A stretch of 64,000 bases of DNA, taken from Octopus sinensis (Eukaryota). Positions 29,065 through 55,019 of the stretch are shown here, in pieces. Both the position numbers and the translations under genes were made by a program. The notes under the pieces were generated by a model that did not search any database, was not told the DNA's origin, and saw nothing but the letters and a program-made list of their open reading frames with translations. The first letter of the stretch is position 1, and every line of letters starts with the position of its first letter. Location of the stretch: positions 43,400,001-43,464,000 of the forward strand of contig NC_043001.1 of assembly GCF_006345805.1 (NCBI RefSeq). The letters are read 5' to 3'.

Positions 29065-29272
29065 ATATACTTTATTTAAAAGCAACAGAAATATAACAAA
29101 AGCTGTTACTTAGAGCTTCACATTCCCGTTCGTCGGACAGTTTTGTTAAAATAGAACAGAAATAACAATTGTTATTTCTGTTCTATTTTAACAAAACTGT
29201 CCGACGAACGGGAGTGTGAAGCCCTAAGTAACAGCTTTTGTTATATTTCTGCTGCTTTTAAATAAAGTATAT
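29065..29272. repeat. Spacer-less palindrome with 104-bp arms
   Basis: Centre ACAA|TTGT at 29168/29169; three mismatches. Confidence 0.9.
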
Positions 29273-41916: not shown

Positions 41917-43990
41917 CGAGAGAGAAAGAGAGAGAGAGAGGGGGGGAACATTGCATATGTGGAATGAAATAAACAAGAAATGAAAAAATCATATAAATAA
42001 AAGGGCATTACTACAGACGTATACACCCCCACAACTTTGCTGCCTCATAACATCCAGAAAAATGAATACCTTTTAACAAAATTTTCAACAAATACCACTT
42101 AGATGTTGTGGCTTCAGGGTATATATGGATTTATGAGAAAGAATTTTTTCAAGGGGGTGAAGAGGGAAGCTTCGGAAAATTCACATGATTTGAATTTTTT
42201 CTCTCATAACTTTCAGGAAGATGGGTATCATTTAATGAAAGTTTATACAAATCCCTTTCAAACAGCATAGATTACAATTATAAAGAAATTTGTAGGGAAA
42301 ACGTTTTGGGGATTTTCCCCATTTTTTTTAAGCCACAGCCTTCAAAATGATGGGGTTGAGGGGGGCATCTTTGTATGAAAGATGTTTTGAAAGCTCTTTT
42401 TTTTTACACCCTCCTTATCATCCCTCTCCCAACCTATTTTGGCTAATATTTTTTTGCATTTCAAAACCATGGGAAGAGCATTTTTGGTAAAAAAAAACCC
42501 AAAAATTGTTAATATTTTCAGAGGGAAAAGTGAGGGCGATTTGGCTGTTGTTTCTAGCACATTCAAAGACAACCCTCCTGATTTCTCTACCACTCTTGCA
42601 TGTATTTGTTGTTTTTCAATATTTTTTCCCCATAATTTTGTGGAGGTCAACTTTGCCTTTCATCCTTTTGGGGTCAATAAATTAAGTCCCAGATGCATAC
42701 TGGATTGATCTAATTGACTGGCCCCTCCCCCCAAATTTCGGGCCTTGTGCCTAGAGTAGCAAAGAATATTTTTCTTCTCATAAATACATTTATATGCTAT
42801 AAAAAAGGAAAATTTGAGAGATTATGAATTTTTTGCAACCCTTACTCACTGTCCCTGCTTGTTTCTGTTTAGAAATTAAAATATTGGAGAGCTTGAGATG
42901 GTTATTGCTGGCATTTATTCACAGTGATTTAAAAAATGACAGAGATATACTTGCATTGCAAGTGACTTGATCTGAGGTCATCTGCTGAAACAAAAACGAT
43001 TGCAGCATGGAAGAAGTTTGTAAGCCATTCAAGAAAACACGAAAACCATTAGTTTCATGGTGCTACTTAAATACAGAGGTTCCGATGCATCTATGTAACA
43101 ATATGAGGGGGAAGGTTAGTTTTTAGGGTTAGTTTTAGGGTTAGTTAGGGTTAGGGTTAGGGTTAAGGTTAGGGTTAGGGTTAAGGCTAGGGTGTCATTA
43201 CATGTCCACACAGCATACATTTAAAATGTTTTGTATGTAACACCTGTATTTAAGAAGCACCATTAATGGACCTCTGTATTTTAGTATAACCAGTTTCACC
43301 TCAACAATTAAATTTCATTGGTGTCAAAATATTTTTGTCGCTTTGAAACCGCAACCTGTTCACTGACAAAACATCTCAAAAGTGATACCACACGAAGTTT
43401 TGTCAGTGAGCACACACACACACACACACACACACATTGCCTTTCGTTTGTGTGTATGTATATCTATGTGTGCGCGCAAGTGTGTGTATGTGTCATTGTT
43501 GAAATCCCTTGTGCAACTTGTTTGTGCATATATTAGCTTAGTGATACAGAATGTTTGGAAACTGAATAAGGTGCAAATTTCAAGTAGTTGTTGGTAACTT
43601 TTTTCCTCCTCATCTTCTAATAGTAATTACCCAACTTTCTAGGCTCTTCTCACAGCTATCCTGTGTTCAAAAATTATACGGGTATTGAAAAAAATTTACA
43701 TTCAATAAATGTTTTTACATTATGTATACATTAATAAAATAACCGGTTGGTTTTCCAAATAGTGAATTAAAACTTAAAAGACAGAATGAAAGGCTTTGCA
43801 AATGAAAATGGAATACTTTGCAGTGAATGCAATGAATATTTAAATTTGTGAGAAATTGGAGTTTAAAAATTCAATAAACTTGAGAATTCAAAATTATTGG
43901 AAATTTCTTAGAACGTAAATTTATAAAAATATTTCCTGAGTCAACCCTTTAATAATTACTTTCTCCGTTATATATATATATGCTAGTAAA
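40055..43990. repeat. Cluster of decayed AT-rich interspersed repeats, probably Helitron-derived, with local duplications
   Basis: 40057-40130 resembles 41662-41735; 41300-41490 resembles 43800-43970; 40910-41035 resembles 41068-41172; reverse Helitron-type end TACTAG plus hairpin at about 41544. Confidence 0.5.
43059..43291. mobile_element. Merlin-like MITE carrying (TTAGGG)n
   Basis: GG...CC termini, about 24-bp imperfect TIRs, 8-bp flanks AGTTTCAT/AGTTTCAC, telomere-type repeats at about 43117-43192. Confidence 0.6.
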
Positions 43991-44859: not shown

Positions 44860-44980
44860 GTCTCCCTTGCATAGGTTTTACTTTTTGATACTGTTTGGTG
44901 TTTTGTCTTGTCGACTAAACACTTCACCTCTTCAAACCTGAAAATTACGGTCGTATTTGAGAACGTGTTTTATCTATCGG
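44860..44980 (+). promoter_or_regulatory. Possible first non-coding exon of the plus-strand gene
   Basis: Unique, CpG-richer segment ending in a CG|GTAAAT donor; the coding exon at 49606 is preceded by acceptors, implying an upstream 5' UTR exon. Confidence 0.25.
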
Positions 44981-46032
44981 TAAATATTTAGTTTTCGATA
45001 AACAATAGATTTAATTGAAGGTATATTAACATTATCCCTCCCGGCAATGTTCCTATTCGTACCATACTAATGTTTGGTAAACAACAATGTCATTACATAT
45101 TTTAGTTAATCTGCCTACCCAACGAAAATAATATTGTTGTTTGTTATTATTGTAAATAATGGTTTATTAGATAAATTTTCAGTAGTTCTTTTACTTATTA
45201 TTCTTGTATTTGATGTTTTCTTTTCAGTGCTTGAGTCTAATTTCGCTATTTCCCCATGTTGTATACACTCTCTGTACTTATTCCAAATGGCTTGTTTCCT
45301 TAAACTATTCCTATCGAATCCGACTATATATATAATATAATATAATATACTATGTGTGTGTGTTGCATAGTAAATAATTCTTTTATTTCTTATTTCAAAG
45401 AAGTAAAAAAGTGAATGTTTTTATCAATAATCACTGCACACTAATCTTCTAGATATTGTTTATCTAAAGATACATATAGTACGTAAAATACCTGTAAATC
45501 TTTGTTCACTTTCAGAAAAGCTATGGACAAATTGTCTATGGCACTAGAAAATATTCTTAATGAAGTAGTTGACTGCTTAAAGTGTACGATAATTAAATGC
45601 TGGAGCGATTTCGCCAAGCTAAATTGCATTTATCTCCCTATTTGAAGCTGCCAAATATTATCGAAAATATTGCTCAATTTCAAGATATTTAAAATATATG
45701 TCATTTATTCAATAATATTATTTAGTCTGATTTTTACCATTCTATAATTTGTCTTTAAGGCTGGAATTTCATTAACCCATAAAGCGCTGGGATTTGCACT
45801 TACACAGCATGGGCTGCTGAACACATTTTATGAAAATGAGACTACCATGCACACATAAAAACGAAAAGTAGTTAAGATATCTTCTTAGTATATAATGGTA
45901 GCAAGTTTTACATCATCTGAAAAGTCATTAGTTGAACTATTAGTCCTTTTGCATTCTGCGGGGGTATTGGAGCATTTGAGTGACATTAGACCCCAACAAA
46001 CGCCTCATAAATTAAATGCATCTATTTCAGGA

Positions 46033-46895
46033 CAACTTTCGGGCCGGGACCTATGGACAATCACCAAAGATCTCTGGCCTGGCAGTGCTATCAAGAAGCA
46101 TTACCTGTTCGGGATTAGCTTTACAGGCACGGTCCAAGACACATTGGACCGACTTGCCGAGATACGGTCAGAGTAATGGAACTGTTCTGCACGCACTCGT
46201 GCGGTGTCCAACCATTTCAGACCTGTGGGCTTATGCCCGAACGGCTGTTGGCATGTGTGGGATGAGTCCGCCTGTCGGCCGAGTCTATCGTGACAGTTGC
46301 TCTGCCACCTTCCCTCAGTTGGGAAGGCAAGGCAGTCTTCATTGTACTGGTGGCCATGGCGAAAGAATGTGTGTGGTGGACTCAAGCAAAAGGATTAGAG
46401 ACAAACACTTATGTCTCTGGCCAATCGATCAACTTTTTCAAGTACTACTTGAAAAGGAAGGTGAGAATGGAGAGGCAGGTTTTGTCTCGTGAATGTTTCA
46501 AAAAAAGGTGGGTGAATGTAGCAAAGATGGTGCATGCGAGCGACGAAACCACTTTGAGCATGATCCTGTAAATCGTAAAAAGAAAGAGAGAGAGAGAGCA
46601 CTTTGCTCTCATGTTTATTTCCACCCTGCCTGAGGTTACTGTGGTCTTTTCCATAGGCTTTTCTTCCCACTGATAAACCTAATCTTGCTTCTTATTTTTA
46701 AAATATTTCTTCTGTACATCCTTTTTGATCACCTTTTTTCCCCCCGATCCCCTTTGATTGGAATTTTACTTTTTTCTCTTTTTTTTCCATTTTCAAAAAG
46801 TAAAGCTCTACAATTTTGTATTTGCCCCCGCTGTGTTCAGCCCTGTGTGGCCAATAAAGAAAGTTATCTATCTGTCTGTCTGTCTATCTATCTAC
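46033..46895 (+). mobile_element. L1/Tx1-clade LINE 3' end
   Basis: TVLHALVRCP zinc-knuckle region and FKYYLKRKVRMER..FKKRW C-terminus; pyrimidine-rich 3' UTR, AATAAA and (TATC/TGTC)n tail. Confidence 0.75.
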
Positions 46896-47700
46896 CTATC
46901 ATAAAACGGAAGGTGTGTGTGTATAAAGGCCTTTTTCTTGATTCTCCATAAAATCAATATTTTTCATCCGATTTCGTTCACACTGGGAACATATATCACT
47001 TATGTTCCAGAGATGATCATAGACTCTTCAAATTTTCCACAATGAGTAATGTTGCCCTCTAGGGGACAAAAACACTTTCTCATAGGTAAATAAATACCAA
47101 CGATCGTTGCTTCAGGGGACATTACTCTTGATGACGTAGTTATGCTATTTTCACTTCGTCTCTTACAACAGTTTTTACAATGTCCATTCACTGCAAACTG
47201 CTGATATTTGCACATTAGCACTTCCTGGAGATAGCCATGGAATTTAAATCAACTTTTAATTATTTTTTAAATGCCTTCAGACAATGTTTAGCTAGATTGC
47301 CCAAGGCTCAAATATCTTAACCTTTCCTAAGGCCATTATGACAATTTTCTGAATCCACTCAGCAAACAATAGTACCACAGACATTCAAATTAGCCCGTCC
47401 CCCCTCTACCTTCACTTTGCAGATAACCCTGCAATGCCACGTCGGAAAAAGAGAGTTTTCATTGGTAGACTGTCCAGTACTGCTGCTAAAGCCAGAAGAT
47501 ATCGGAATAACGAATCTCAAGACCAGAGGTCCTACAGACTGTCCAAGCAGGCTACCTACAATACTGCTGCCCATGCAGTACATACACCTGCAACTTCTGC
47601 CACCGTTAAGGCTTCAAAGTATGAAGAAGAGCTTGTGTAAGCATAAGAAAATTTTTAAAAATCCCAGTCCAAGGATTCCTTGGGGTAAAACATGAACCAA
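46890..47700 (+). mobile_element. 5' relic of an autonomous Helitron
   Basis: TC..ATAAAA..(TG)n start; ORF 47434-47640 MPRRKKRVFIGRLSSTAAKARRYRNNESQDQRSYRL resembles Helitron Rep/Hel N-termini. Confidence 0.5.
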
Positions 47701-48149
47701 GAAAAGAGAGATTGAAAGTTTTAAACGAGTTGTAGTTGCATAGGAGTATTAGTGTGAGGTTCAGAAATGTCTGTCGTGCCAAACTCTTGCTTTTCTTTCT
47801 CCTGTCTTTATTTGGTCACACACTCACAATATATATGTAACGATGGTGTTGTAACAATAATATGCATCATAGAAATGAGTGAAGAACAATATTAATTGAT
47901 TGTAAAGATGGCCATTATATTTATATGATTATAATGATGGTCATTACAATATAGAAGATACAACTTATTTGAGTTGTTTGTGTACACAGTCTGTTTGTTG
48001 TTGCAGTAAACAAATTGTCTTTAGTTCCATGATACATTGTGTTTGGTAGTTAGTTTCATCTGTGAGTGACTTCGAGAGAGACAGAGGGAGTAAGAGAGTT
48101 TAGGCAAGTAGAGAGAGTAATAGATCTGCTGTTGCACATGTTGACCAGC

Positions 48150-48570
48150 ATACCTGCCATCAGGCATCTACCATACTCTGAACATCTTACTTCTCTGGGT
48201 ATGGATACATTAAAGCTCCAACATCTGGCTTGGTAGACATCTACAAGATTCTCCACCATCTTTTCGACAACAATTTTGGGCATGTTTTTTAATTCCATAT
48301 GTCTAACTCTCGTGGACATGCTTGCAAAATCAAAAGGCAGCACCACCACCCTTGACTTTTGGAAACATTATCTCATACTCAGAATTGCTGAGGCATGCAA
48401 TAAAGTACTATCATTAATTGTTTGCTTTGGAACACTATATCTTTCAAAACTTGCATACTTCTTGAAATTCGCCAATAGTACACCTGATGTTCCTCACTCC
48501 CTACTTTTTTTTTTAACAACTCATTCTCTGTTCACTTGTGCATTTTTCTATGTATTCTTCATGCACTTAT
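48150..48570 (+). mobile_element. CR1-like LINE 3' fragment (left arm and loop of the hairpin)
   Basis: PYSEHLTSLGMDTLKL..LVDIYKIL..SRGHACKI..DFWKHYLILRIAEACNK across frameshifts; homologous to 14910-15225. Confidence 0.75.
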
Positions 48571-48765
48571 TGCTACTTTTTATGATTTTGTAAGCATGTC
48601 CATGAGTGTTAGATATATGAAATTCAAAAAGGTGCCCAAGGTTGTTGTTGGAAAGATGGTGGATAATCTTGTGGATGTCTACTAAGCCAGATGTTGGAGC
48701 TTTAATGTGTTCATGCCCAGGGAATTAAGATGTTTAGAGTATGGTAGATGCTTGATGGTAGGTAT
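48150..48765 (+). ncRNA. Candidate long hairpin RNA formed by two inverted CR1-like LINE fragments
   Basis: Arms 48150-48332 and 48583-48765 align without gaps (160/183 identical); 17 of the 23 differences are G-U pairs in a plus-strand transcript. No expression data. Confidence 0.5.
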
Positions 48766-49605
48766 TTGTCTGGTTGCATGTTTCTAAACAGTTTTCATGA
48801 GATAGATATGCTGAGCAAAATAGGGGTTCCAAACTGGTGATGCAAACTCTGTGTATGTACTATAGCCATATACAGTTTTAAATAGATAGCTGGTATGAAT
48901 GATACCAAGATACCCTTAGCCTTCTTGAGAAGGCTAAGGGTATCTTTATGTTTAAAAAAATGGTAACAGGTCGAGATGTGCACACACACACACACACAAA
49001 CATTGTGTTGCTTGTTCCATTTCTGTTTACCACAGCCAACATTCTGCTTTTTCATGTCACACATCAAATTTTATGAGTTCCTTCATTCTTAAAGTTGGTA
49101 TTTTAAAGAATTTCTATTTTTGTATTCCTGTAATATATTAATATTTCAAACTTCGTATTAATATTCTGTCTATCTTTCAGACTGAAGACAATCCTAACAA
49201 GTTGTATATTACACTTGGATTGATATTAATAAGTTTCAATTCTTTTAAATAACACAAAAAAATGAATTTAATAAAATGGATATGTATTTCATTGATTGTG
49301 GGAGGAGTACTTTAAACATTTTATAATAAATAGATTAAAGTCCATGGAAAATGTAATGAAATAAATTGCATAAGTACTGAAAAAAAAAGAGATTTTTACT
49401 TATTTGAAGTATTGTTGTACAAAGGAAACTGAGGGAAGCTATATTTCCTCCTTCTGCATTGTGATCATTTTAACCATTCTATTCTTCTTTAACTGTTGAT
49501 AATTTTCACATTTCATTTTAAATATCACAGTAGCTTAGTTGGACATTTGTAAAATTTCTTAATTGAATATTTATATGATTTCGATATTTCAGTTTAATTT
49601 CTAAG

Positions 49606-49709
49606 ATGAAACCTGAATCCAAAAGAGTTATTCGACATGTCCAGCAAAATTTTGACCATTCAATTTGGACCATAAATGATCGCAAATGTTTGTCCAAGGC
49701 TTTAAAAAG
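49606..49709 (+). CDS. First coding exon of a Myb/SANT-like protein, possibly SNAPC2 (SNAP45)-like: MKPESKRVIRHVQQNFDHSIWTINDRKCLSKALK
   Basis: Acceptors just upstream (tttcag ending 49592, ctaag ending 49605), open frame, consensus AAG|GTAAGT donor (phase 2). The MKP start and W-x4-R/K-x2-L helix resemble, from memory, the human SNAPC2 N-terminus. Confidence 0.6.
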
Positions 49710-50076: not shown

Positions 50077-50745
50077 GTACTGAGAAAAATATATTTCTGC
50101 CATTGCATTCTTTGAAGCAATCATCATCATCATCATCGTTTAATGTCCGTTTTCCATGCTGGCATGGGTTGGACAGTTTGATTGAAGTCTAGAGAGCCAG
50201 CAGCTGCACCAGGCTCCAATCTGATCTGGCAATGTTTCTACAGCTTGATGCCCTCCTCAATGCCAACCACTCTGAGATTGTAGTGGGTGCTTTTTATGTG
50301 CCGCCGGTACAAGAGCCAGTCAGGCGGGCCTGGCATCGACCACATTCGGATAGTGCTTTTTATGTGCCACCGGCATGGGGGCCAGTCAGGGGGTACTGGC
50401 ATCAGCCATGTTCAGATGTTGCTTTTTACATGCCACTATTACGAGAGCCAGTCAAGGTTTACTGGCATCAACCACTTTTGGATGGTGCTTTTTACATGCC
50501 ACCAGCATAGGGGCCAGTCAGATAGGTGGTCCTGGTGTTGATCATAGTTTGGATAGTTCTTTTTACATGCCATTGGCATGGGAGCCAGTCAGGAGGTACT
50601 GACATCGGTCATATTCAGATGTGGTTTTTGTTATTTGCCACTGCCAATATCAATGGTAAAACTTTGATGAGTTGTTATTCTATTTTTAGTAAATTTTTGA
50701 ATTTTTATTTTACCTTCCTCTGCTGAAACTGCAAGATACACTATA

Positions 50746-52017: not shown

Positions 52018-54010
52018 TACAATAAAAGTTATTGATTTCATCAACCCTATCTGAGTTGACCAATGATAAGGAGTTAGCTTATTACAATCTGGTCATTTAG
52101 AGTTTGGTTTGTTGGCTATTATTGTAGTTAATAACCTTCCAGTTATTATTGTTGAGTAGCTTTAGTCAGGATATAACTAATTGAATGATTAGGAACAACC
52201 CACATATTCACTACTCTGGGTATGCCAAAAAATGTCTGGCTTGTCAGTGTGAGTTGAGATTATTTTCTTTGATTTATGCCAGACTTAGGACTTGTAGTTC
52301 TAATTTTAGAGATTGCAGAGAGTTTTTGATGGAAATTTCTTTACCATTATGTACAAGCTCTCCTACTGAAATTTCATTGTCTTACAGTGTTTGATTTTTC
52401 ATGTAACAGTCAAACATGTTTAATCTAGTTTTCTGTCCAAATTCTGATTAATGTTCAGCACTTTTGTACACAGTTACATAAACTCATATATGGAGTATTG
52501 TGGTGTTAGATAACTGACTTGAAATATATACATACATAACAATTCCATGTGAGATCATTACATTGTTATCAATGTATATTATTATATTTGGTTATGTTAA
52601 TTCAGTTGAAAAAGATAACCCTCTTTATGGTTGAGTAATATTAAGAAAGTTTGGTGGACTAGCAAAATTGTTAGTGTTGGAAAAAATGCCTTCTGGTATT
52701 TGTTCTGTTTCTTTACATCTTGAATTCAAAGTCTGCTGCGGTCACAGTCACCTTTGAGTCCTCCAGAGTCAATGAAATAAAGTACCAATTAAGTACTAGG
52801 ACCAATGTAATCAACTAACCCTCTCCCCTCAAAAATTGCTGGCCTCATACCTAAATTATAAAGAATTAGGAGAGGTACCAAACCATAGTAGATTGCATGC
52901 AAATAAAAATGTAAACTAACTGTGTGAACCCTTGCTAAAATAGGATTATGTGTATGTGGTTTTCTGTCTGGCCATAATAATGGTCCCATAACATAACTCA
53001 TTGGTTTGTTAGGGTGTTTGTGAAAATTTAATTTTAATGTATTATGTCTATGATATGTATGCTTGATGAGTCTGCACTGCTTGAAGCTATACTCATAGGT
53101 GGAATGAACTCAGTCTTGCAATTGAGATATTTGTCTATTTTATAGTACTTCTGTTACCCATATACAGATAAGTGAACTGAACCATTTGAGAGTTAAATAG
53201 TTATAATGTAGTACTGGTTAACTAGCACTCTGTCAGTTATAATGACAAGTGTTCCAGTTGATCTGACCACTGGAATAGCTTGCTCCTGAAATTAATGTGC
53301 AAATAGCTGAGCCCTCCACAGACACACATACCCCTAACATAGTTCTCAGGGAGATTCAGTGACATGGAATGTGACAAAGCCTTTGAATTACAGGTACAAT
53401 TCATTTTTGCCAGTTGAGTGAACTGGAACAATGTAAAAATAAAGTGTTTTGCTCAGGACACAAAATGTCACTGGGTATTGAACTCGTAACCTTATGATTG
53501 TGAACTGAATACCCTAACCACTAAGCCACACAACTGGTGACAGACTATAAATCGTGGATTTCTGCTGATTGTTTAGTACTTTTCTTCTGTCTCTCCTTTA
53601 ATGATATGGTATTTACTTTATAAAACAATGTTCAAGTTAACATAATGTTTGGCATATCTTGTTTCAATATTCGTTCTAGCATATGGATTTATGTGCATAT
53701 GTTGAAATCATTAAGTATACAGGAATCATCATATGATTTCTATTTTACTATTCAGATGATTAAACTTATATTTCTTGTATATGTAGGTGTTTATAACATG
53801 ATATAAGTGTTTGAGCTTTAACAGTTTTTTTTTTATTGTCTAAAAAAAAAAATCACCTGTGTCTGTTTCTTAAAAGCTGTTTCTTTTATCATCATTATTT
53901 TATTTCTTCTTATTGACTTAATTAAGGATGTGCTAACTTCTTTGAAGTTTTATGTTTTATTTTAAAGTGTGCTAACTTCATTGAAGTTTTATGTTTTATT
54001 TTATATTCAG

Positions 54011-54074
54011 CCTTTCCGTTGATGAAATCAAAGCGAATGCCAAACATATCTTTGAAAATAAATCCCCTCTTGAG
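54011..54074 (+). CDS. Exon of the SNAPC2-like gene (LSVDEIKANAKHIFENKSPLE)
   Basis: TGCTAAC branch point, T-rich tract, attcag| acceptor, GAG|GTAATT donor, phase 2->0. SVDEI and SPLE parallel SEAEI and APIE(VW) of SNAPC2. Confidence 0.55.
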
Positions 54075-55019
54075 GTAATTACTGATCACTATTTTTCATA
54101 TTGTTGGTTGTTTGATTTGGTGTAAATGTTAGTATGGTTTTGTGTTAAAATGTAGACGTCATCTTTGCTTTTCATCTTTCTGGGATTAATATAATATTTC
54201 TGATAATTTACTGGAATCAGTTCAGTTAACTATATCATTTCTTCACAAGAATCAGTATTATAGGTGTTTTGTATTTACTATAATGTGCTTTTAAATGTTT
54301 TTTTATGCTGCAAGCCACTTTTTTCTGGAAAAGAAAGATGGGACCTTGAAGTCCCCACCAAGGGAGTTTTGTTTTGCTGGTCACTTTTTATTTTTCAGGT
54401 TATTTTGCATGCTTTCAATGAATGTGACATCGAAATCACATATTAACAGCTCCTTTTTCCAGAAAAAGAAAGATTTGGTTGCTATTTCTAGCATGCCTTG
54501 CTAACATGTAACAACTATTTGTGTTCATACCAAAATGTTTTCCAACTTTTTCCCTTCCATTTATTTTTTCCACTTTATTGAAATCTATAATTCTCTGTTG
54601 ACATCCACCTCAGTTAATTTTGCTTTTCTCCCACTTCTGTGCTTTCTGGAAGAAAAGCCAGTTCTGGATGCTATAGTTGTCTGCCTTGTTGCCACGGTCA
54701 AGAATCATTCACAGTGTGGTGGTCAAGACTCTCTCTGGCATATATAATAATTACATTCCAGCTAGAAAGATAGATATACCATTATATGCATAGCTTATAC
54801 TAATGTACATCACTTGCTGTCCAGGCTCTCTAAGCAATGCACATCTGTCCACGAAAGGATGGAAAAATTGCTACTCCTGTGAATCAACGACTAGCAACTC
54901 GCAGGAGGCATGATTACGGAGACTGTTGTTTGCAAGAAAGTATGAGCGCTCTATGGGGATCTCCTGAAGCAGAACCCTGGAACATCAATGGAGGAGACAT
55001 CAGCAGACATATTTAAGGC

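Follow-up and report, generated by a model that had tools for sequence, protein, structure and literature searches.

A G-U-biased inverted LINE duplication, probably an ADAR substrate, in the first intron of a SNAPC2-like gene of Octopus sinensis

The locus and its host gene

The window analysed here is a stretch of 64,000 nt from Octopus sinensis (NC_043001.1, positions 43,400,001 to 43,464,000, forward strand), and all coordinates below count from its first letter. It contains the first exons of a plus-strand gene, with an inverted repeat lying in the first intron:

44860..44979, plus strand: exon 1, non-coding, with no ATG inside; from RNA-type contigs X15 (44860-44979) and X17 (44873-44979), 5' end approximate
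44980..49592, plus strand: intron 1, 4.6 kb, GT..AG, repeat-rich, containing the hairpin; splice joint inferred from a loose contig end
49593..49709, plus strand: exon 2, with the start codon (49606) of a 434-aa SNAPC2-like protein
54009..54077, plus strand: exon 3; later exons lie beyond the window end

The 434-aa protein matches Pfam SNAPC2 with an E-value of 2.9e-5 and 24.8 bits, slightly below the cut-off of 25.5. The loose end of X17 beyond 44979 consists of the first letters of exon 2 at 49593; the 'RNA-type' status of these sequencing runs is a guess on our part, and a spliced joint is not expected from DNA. Because the contigs join 44979 to 49593, the hairpin is transcribed on the plus strand, the one that forms G-U pairs, and both arms fall within one transcript. 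This agreement of strands could not be foreseen from the letters by themselves and counts in favour of selection on pairing. The original prediction had placed the arms about 840 bp upstream of a plus-strand ATG, probably in its 5' intron; the ATG at 49606 lies 841 nt beyond the second arm (exon 2 is about 830 nt away), and the spliced RNA-type contigs put the hairpin inside the 5'UTR intron.

Other repeats occur nearby. Within intron 1, positions 46026-46900 hold a very high-copy repeat (6671 first-look candidates, about 85% identity), and 46913-47640 belong to a repeat family in which a 95-aa frame (47353-47637) has a weak match to STPRs (E 5.4e-5, below the cut-off). Intron 2 carries a tandem array of five copies of a 66-nt unit (50287-50629), and a short TTAGGG-type array of 12 copies with 79% matches is found at 43114-43193, distant from the contig end.

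Geometry and predicted pairing of the fold-back

The fold-back and the sequence that adjoins it are made up as follows:

48150..48332, plus strand: arm A, a sense LINE 3' fragment with the end of an ORF2 remnant
48333..48582, plus strand: loop, 250 nt, continuing the same sense LINE fragment
48577..48586, no strand assigned: fold-back junction, about 10 nt common to the sense and antisense family matches, with TGAT and T-run microhomology
48583..48765, minus strand: arm B, an antisense copy of the LINE segment in arm A
48766..48893, minus strand: arm B extension, unpaired antisense LINE from further 5' in the element
48907..48946, no strand assigned: second small fold-back, a perfect 19-bp stem with a 2-nt loop at the far end of the antisense fragment

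An ungapped alignment of the two arms, of 183 nt each, shows 23 differing positions. With the plus strand as the RNA, 17 of these differences form G-U pairs, one is an A-C mismatch (48295/48620) and five are transversions, which reproduces an earlier hand count exactly; BLAST lengthens the arms by 3 nt, bringing in one further transversion. The 17:1 skew has a binomial probability of 7.2e-5 one-sided and 1.4e-4 two-sided. When both strands of 48130-48785 are folded, as had been proposed, the plus strand comes out the more stable (minimum energy -344 versus -288.8 kcal/mol), and the arm-arm duplex alone is predicted at -297.2 on the plus and -232.1 on the minus strand. The predicted fold of the transcribed strand is a long stable duplex with unbroken paired runs of 40, 60, 32, 5, 4, 12 and 24 bp, against a maximum of 25 bp on the minus strand. 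An assembly artefact is ruled out, since a DNA-type contig with another organism label (X6 record 14, 48215-48672) runs through arm A and the loop into the start of arm B. A search of Rfam gave three weak matches, each far under its gathering score, and an AATAAA in the loop (48399), one of six in the intron, is unpaired.

Origin of the inverted copy

The source family is high-copy, with 2911 first-look candidates, of which 40 were scored; the scored copies are 74-80% identical to the window. Family copies extend about 55 nt beyond the sense piece in the window, which ends with the loop, and close in an ATT-type tail. High copy number, 5' truncation and a short tandem-repeat 3' tail are what is looked for in a CR1-like LINE, and the degenerate translated remnant, a C-terminal ORF2 peptide, resembles in its motifs what we take to be the end of a CR1/L2-type ORF2; a Pfam search on the LINE remnant returned no match. 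The derivation of the arms from a LINE 3' region, as originally proposed, is thus borne out, whereas the CR1-like label depends on these motifs.

Arm A and the loop form a single sense fragment (48150-48586), and arm B is part of an antisense fragment, at about 48577-48893, which covers another 128 nt of the element on its 5' side. We infer from this arrangement that the locus arose as a local inverted duplication of one LINE 3' fragment, made in place by template switching, which can create hairpins and repair stems according to the available part of 10.1101/2021.04.15.439925. In-place duplication is favoured by the overlap of the two pieces within the element, by the absence of the family 3' end from both and by their joining at microhomology; two independent insertions or twin priming are less likely, with a tail-to-tail double insertion followed by deletion as a possible alternative. 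Compared with 19 family copies, the arms have only four non-majority letters in common across 183 columns, so the duplication would be nearly as old as the insertion itself. Three of these shared changes turn G-C into A-U and are reachable via G-U, and the four letters occur together in none of the 19 copies.

Selection on pairing or neutral decay

Two readings of the divergence between the arms have to be weighed. In the first, the inverted LINE duplication in intron 1 of the SNAPC2-like gene forms a predicted 183-bp duplex that is likely edited by ADAR, and purifying selection removes pair-breaking mutations while G-C pairs decay to G-U; we regard this as evenly poised between right and wrong. 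In the second, which strikes us as a serious possibility though short of an even chance, the locus is a neutral relic of a template-switch duplication, its skew would be a chance tail combined with a mild transcription-linked C>T bias on the plus strand, and folding and editing of the RNA would be those of a bystander, as in most intronic inverted repeats.

Polarisation against the family, another proposed check, took the commonest letter among the 19 copies as the reference. On the plus strand, C>T changes account for fourteen of the 17 G-U pairs, eight in arm A and six in arm B. The other three arose by A>G in arm A, one of them in a column where the family letters split 11:8 and the reference is ambiguous; the only A-C mismatch goes back to a G>A in arm B. 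With 14 of 17 being C>T, the skew reflects decay of G-C to G-U and is no record of editing, which rules out an imprint left by reinsertion of edited RNA or by genomic mimicry of A>G. CpG decay is ruled out as well, 13 of the 14 C>T sites having no following G and the G at the fourteenth being derived.

Equal skew in the loop and in neighbouring unpaired repeats had been named as the finding that would speak for mutational asymmetry, and the arms prove more skewed than either. The loop (C>T 7/59, G>A 3/27) and the arm B extension (C>T 4, G>A 3) belong to the same element and have no per-base skew, a point against neutral decay, and two other repeats in the intron give C>T and G>A at 19/198 versus 11/198 and 11/86 versus 4/57. 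Pooled, the unpaired repeats of the intron stand at 54:34 versus 17:1 in the arms (Fisher p=0.0055). Their own plus-strand C>T excess (37/343 versus 18/282, p=0.065, odds ratio 1.77) is what the neutral reading would call for, and the binomial probability of the skew rises to about 1.3e-3 at a baseline of 0.6 and to 0.014 at 0.7. The value of 7e-5 given in the original prediction is arithmetically correct but overstates the case, because of this mild excess, because skews are overdispersed in one of two background sets (see below) and because the locus was chosen from a large scan.

Ordered pairs of family copies served as a neutral yardstick; the 292 pairs are non-independent, and the copies are best matches and biased young. 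Per 183 nt, independent copy pairs average 10.7 G-U, 10.7 A-C and 9.8 transversions, where the arms have 17, 1 and 5. Not one of the 292 has as few as one A-C change, or as few as six A-C changes and transversions together; at most five transversions are found in 42, and at least 17 G-U changes in 14. Within the locus there is accordingly a deficit of pair-breaking changes (6 versus 20.5 expected, Poisson p 1.8e-4), although treating the three shared changes as additional events of the A-C type raises p to 0.018. G-U changes exceed their expected number (17 versus 10.7, p=0.046), and this counts against selection alone, since purifying selection by itself gives no such excess. Each of the 19 copies has one to five indels relative to arm A and there are none between the arms, the ends of which are partly set by that. 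Transversions are scarcer in the arms (5/354) than in the loop (14/235, p=0.003), a comparison to be read against the family's own regional rates of 0.039 per site in the loop and 0.028 in the arms. A neutral relic has to accommodate the skew (p about 1e-3 at the 0.6 baseline), the few transversions and the zero indels all together.

A scan of 1.81 Mb for inverted pairs of like skew, as had been suggested, places the locus as the most skewed non-microsatellite pair among 548. The first set (1.064 Mb, of which 664 kb surround the locus) held 317 inverted pairs within 5 kb, 244 of them with at least eight transitions, and its skews are overdispersed (variance 1.6), in keeping with the neutral reading; the six next-strongest pairs comprise three microsatellite artefacts and three real SINE pairs at 1:14, 1:13 and 3:17. 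A second, independent set of 750 kb (231 pairs) has a variance of 1.04 and a lowest p of 0.0046, which tells against that reading. When pairs are limited to those with a loop of 6-1000 nt, a length of 100 nt or more and an identity of 80% or more, 47 remain (some of them overlapping), and this locus alone is strongly skewed. An inverted pair of the same family at another locus (L008) is unskewed at 11:18, and none of 13 pairs in 57 further loci is comparably skewed. Extrapolation to about 300,000 comparable pairs genome-wide nonetheless yields about 44 this skewed by chance, or about 400 at the 0.6 baseline, which favours the neutral reading. The locus is an outlier within the region but not beyond chance across the genome, and a scan will find such outliers.

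Nor does a general rule emerge from SINE copies. In 325 of them, skew rises near inverted partners (Spearman p=0.013, permutation p=0.0002), with flat medians and partner signs agreeing in 20 of 43 cases; a pre-set replicate (248 copies, 750 kb) failed (p=0.37, permutation 0.80), and the trend is rejected. Copies with fewer than six transitions were excluded, 75 of 400 in the first set and 111 of 359 in the replicate. The failed replication, and a lone SINE copy at 16:1, are further points for neutral decay. Two control inverted repeats in the window, described originally as mixed, are so (63014/63604: one G-U, two A-C, one transversion; the best 60 nt of 29065-29272: one G-U, one A-C, no transversions), with too few differences to be informative. 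A literature search, with subscription journals outside its scope, surfaced no account of G-U skew in inverted repeats in the parts of the sources available.

A bias at the DNA level without selection would act through deamination of one strand or through repair templated by the hairpin; G-T repair in a DNA hairpin of the minus strand is one example, and a burst of C-deamination on DNA left single-stranded during rearrangement is another. The dominance of C>T on one strand in both arms and the excess of G-U changes would fit, as would the two fold-back junctions, which suggest a site prone to template switching (a process that can both create and repair stems; 10.1101/2021.04.15.439925, available part). 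We hold it to be very improbable: the loop, which should be the exposed strand, is unskewed; arm-to-arm conversion should leave many shared changes, transversions included, where four were seen with no transversion among them; and such an effect should be general, yet 46 other close and similar pairs lack it.

Editing candidates and comparison between animals

An RNA-type contig over 48662-48780 (X16 record 13, depth 2.5) has three differences from the window, two of them listed, both plus-strand A>G, and the third unlisted:

48719 and 48728, plus strand: candidate A-to-I sites, both in A-U pairs of the stem; one X16 contig, depth 2.5

Both changes are absent from the DNA contigs X6 (0 differences) and X13, which come from other animals, and the chance by composition that two listed differences would both be A>G is 0.003-0.006. 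Each site has a 3' G, for which octopus editing is reported to have a weak preference (PMC5625713, in part). The RNA-type coverage is uneven, with contigs of X15 and X17 missing 48210-48582 and X16 hardly reaching arm A. The genome has 17 A_deamin matches over the cut-off (ADAR and ADAT/ADAD pooled), which we counted as presence of ADAR genes. Of the proposal that the hairpin is an ADAR substrate, what stands is these two A>G changes in arm B, the two listed differences of a single contig of depth 2.5, set against DNA from other animals only. By the available parts of PMC9989829 and PMC5625713, repeats receive the greater part of metazoan editing, which suits a bystander as well. On balance the fold-back is real, and the hairpin is probably an ADAR substrate rather than a source of siRNA.

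In another animal (organism E), 2 of 137 positions in arm B are changed, with a 1-nt deletion at 48754, compared with 10 of 175 in the loop (p=0.07), and part of arm A differs at 4 of 74; these are short pieces, none bridging the arms, and their orthology is assumed from depth and identity. Of the changes in the arms two are listed: one creates a G-U pair (48265), the other restores C-G (48725). A contig of organism D over arm A aligns at a 90% threshold but not at 94%, where filters leave the meaning uncertain; this loss may reflect fast divergence at arm A, a hint against conservation.

A possible role in the intron

The selective reading can be set out as a series of steps. The sense fragment, the microhomology junction, the antisense fragment and the second small fold-back are all present at the locus, and replication template switching would have made the duplication soon after insertion. 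The contigs mark the plus strand as the one that is spliced and transcribed; on it the arms are predicted to pair co-transcriptionally, ADAR may edit arm B as the two A>G candidates suggest, and selection would then maintain the pairing. The most likely job of the stem would be putatively in cis on splicing of the intron, by hiding a cryptic donor and acceptor of the antisense arm, and it may recruit ADAR as well. Recruiting ADAR as editing inducer elements do (PMC4053975, available part) is, by analogy, a possible alternative to splice masking.

The sites that the stem would hide enclose one predicted feature:

48721..48757, plus strand: predicted cryptic exon, 37 nt in arm B with four ATGs, from crude splice matrices

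Its acceptor (AG at 48719-48720) ranks 12 of 246 in the intron by these crude matrices, and its donor (GT at 48758, the T a derived C>T) ranks 4 of 263, above the real exon-1 donor. Use of the exon was seen in no read. The acceptor A is one of the two candidate edits, and 9 of the 28 adenosines in the stretch are in AG. Splice masking is a lead only, because the true acceptor scores poorly by the same matrices, because stronger unpaired cryptic sites exist elsewhere in intron 1 and because so many of the adenosines are in AG. The boldest version, which we consider quite improbable, makes the LINE relic a domesticated splice switch under the control of editing: the stem would hide the 37-nt exon with its four upstream ATGs, and editing of A48719 would destroy the acceptor. 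If true, the amount of an snRNA transcription factor in octopus would be coupled to ADAR activity.

Dicer complement and the siRNA reading

That the locus is a hairpin-RNA locus yielding endo-siRNAs against the LINE family, as first proposed, is extremely improbable, because the only Dicer gene detected, apart from a retrocopy of it, is of Dicer-1 type and because molluscs are reported in two papers to have no dedicated siRNA pathway. Searches of the genome, whose limited sensitivity could miss a diverged Dicer-2, found one multi-exon Dicer, closer to Dcr-1 (E 2.6e-172) than to Dicer-2 (E 4.5e-61), together with an intronless 3' retrocopy, and no Dicer-2 of the kind on which Drosophila hpRNAs depend. 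In their available parts, PMC11114477 and PMC12479628 report molluscs to be without DICER2, siRNA Argonautes, an endo-siRNA signature and a dedicated siRNA pathway, the siRNA-type Argonaute having been lost in Mollusca according to the former. The family copies found are, moreover, old (74-80% to the window). In favour of the idea are a duplex length within the hpRNA range, the existence of TE-derived hpRNA arms in Drosophila such as hp-ODox2 (PMC10317233, available part), and 21-mers that perfectly match at least one of the 19 family copies (59/163 in arm B, 19/163 in arm A).

What had appeared to be a second Dicer proved to be a retrocopy of the 3' part of the gene. This intronless copy (L236:1822-3615; G000:C20:26679321-26681114) is 92-99% identical to the 3' part of the C11 Dicer and has a 597-aa open frame; its second RNase III motif reads RLKFLGDA, where an E is presumably usual. 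Shorter copies of the Dicer end occur on C4 and C2.

Comparison with known systems

Liscovitch-Brauer et al. in 2017 reportedly found purifying selection on coleoid sequence that forms the ADAR duplex around recoding sites. That double-stranded RNA flanks coding edits, whereas the stem described here is non-coding, repeat-derived and intronic. The nearest likeness, in the available parts of PMC5625713 and PMC9989829, is to intronic inverted retroelement pairs (inverted Alus, octopus repeat hyper-editing), which share with our locus inverted arms in one pre-mRNA, a long imperfect duplex, A>G in RNA and ADAR-type genes; the arms here differ in being one LINE copy duplicated in place and not two insertions. 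The divergence here is also G-U-biased, and ordinary inverted pairs of the same genome lack that bias. Editing inducer elements, namely the Gabra-3 intronic element and inverted Alus (PMC4053975, PMC3479170, both in part), are likewise long intronic stems near an exon, and the stem could recruit ADAR in cis as they do, although here no selectively edited nearby site is known and exon 2 is at a distance.

RNA hairpins born of template switching (10.1101/2021.04.15.439925, available part) resemble the locus in a one-step reverse-complement copy, junction microhomology and G-U as a tolerated intermediate, but are rRNA and miRNA stems, whereas here a LINE relic supplies 183-nt arms and a 250-nt loop. 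Drosophila hpRNA and endo-siRNA loci are also long inverted repeats, sometimes TE-derived; by the available part of PMC10317233 they need Dcr-2 and give 21-22-nt siRNAs, in contrast to a stem that lies in an intron of a protein-coding gene in a genome where no Dicer-2 was found.

Repeat editing is usually taken as a bystander effect. Were selection on it demonstrated, a repeat-derived intronic stem would be a concrete example from a coleoid of a non-coding ADAR duplex with a function, here in a gene probably connected with snRNA transcription. Counting G-U versus A-C differences, polarised by family and oriented by splicing, is also an inexpensive way to screen a single genome for duplexes of this kind. 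Should the skew be due to chance, the locus is no more than an inverted repeat of the ordinary sort.

Further inverted repeats and skewed copies

Several other elements encountered in these comparisons may be recorded. The strongest pair of the 750-kb set is a 458-nt inverted pair with a 185-nt loop (G000:C23:3260187-3261237), at 25:8 G-U to A-C (p 0.0046). Within the window, 29065-29272 is a near-perfect 208-nt palindrome, MITE-like by appearance, with 58 of 60 paired in its best stretch. Read on the sense strand of the element, one of 573 SINE copies (G000:C22:7340552-7340754) has 11 C>T, 5 A>G and 1 G>A changes (z -3.96), besides 8 transversions, and has an inverted partner of 70% identity about 200 nt off. 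Another (G000:C17:27419624-27419826), read in the same way, has 20 G>A versus 3 C>T (z -3.08).
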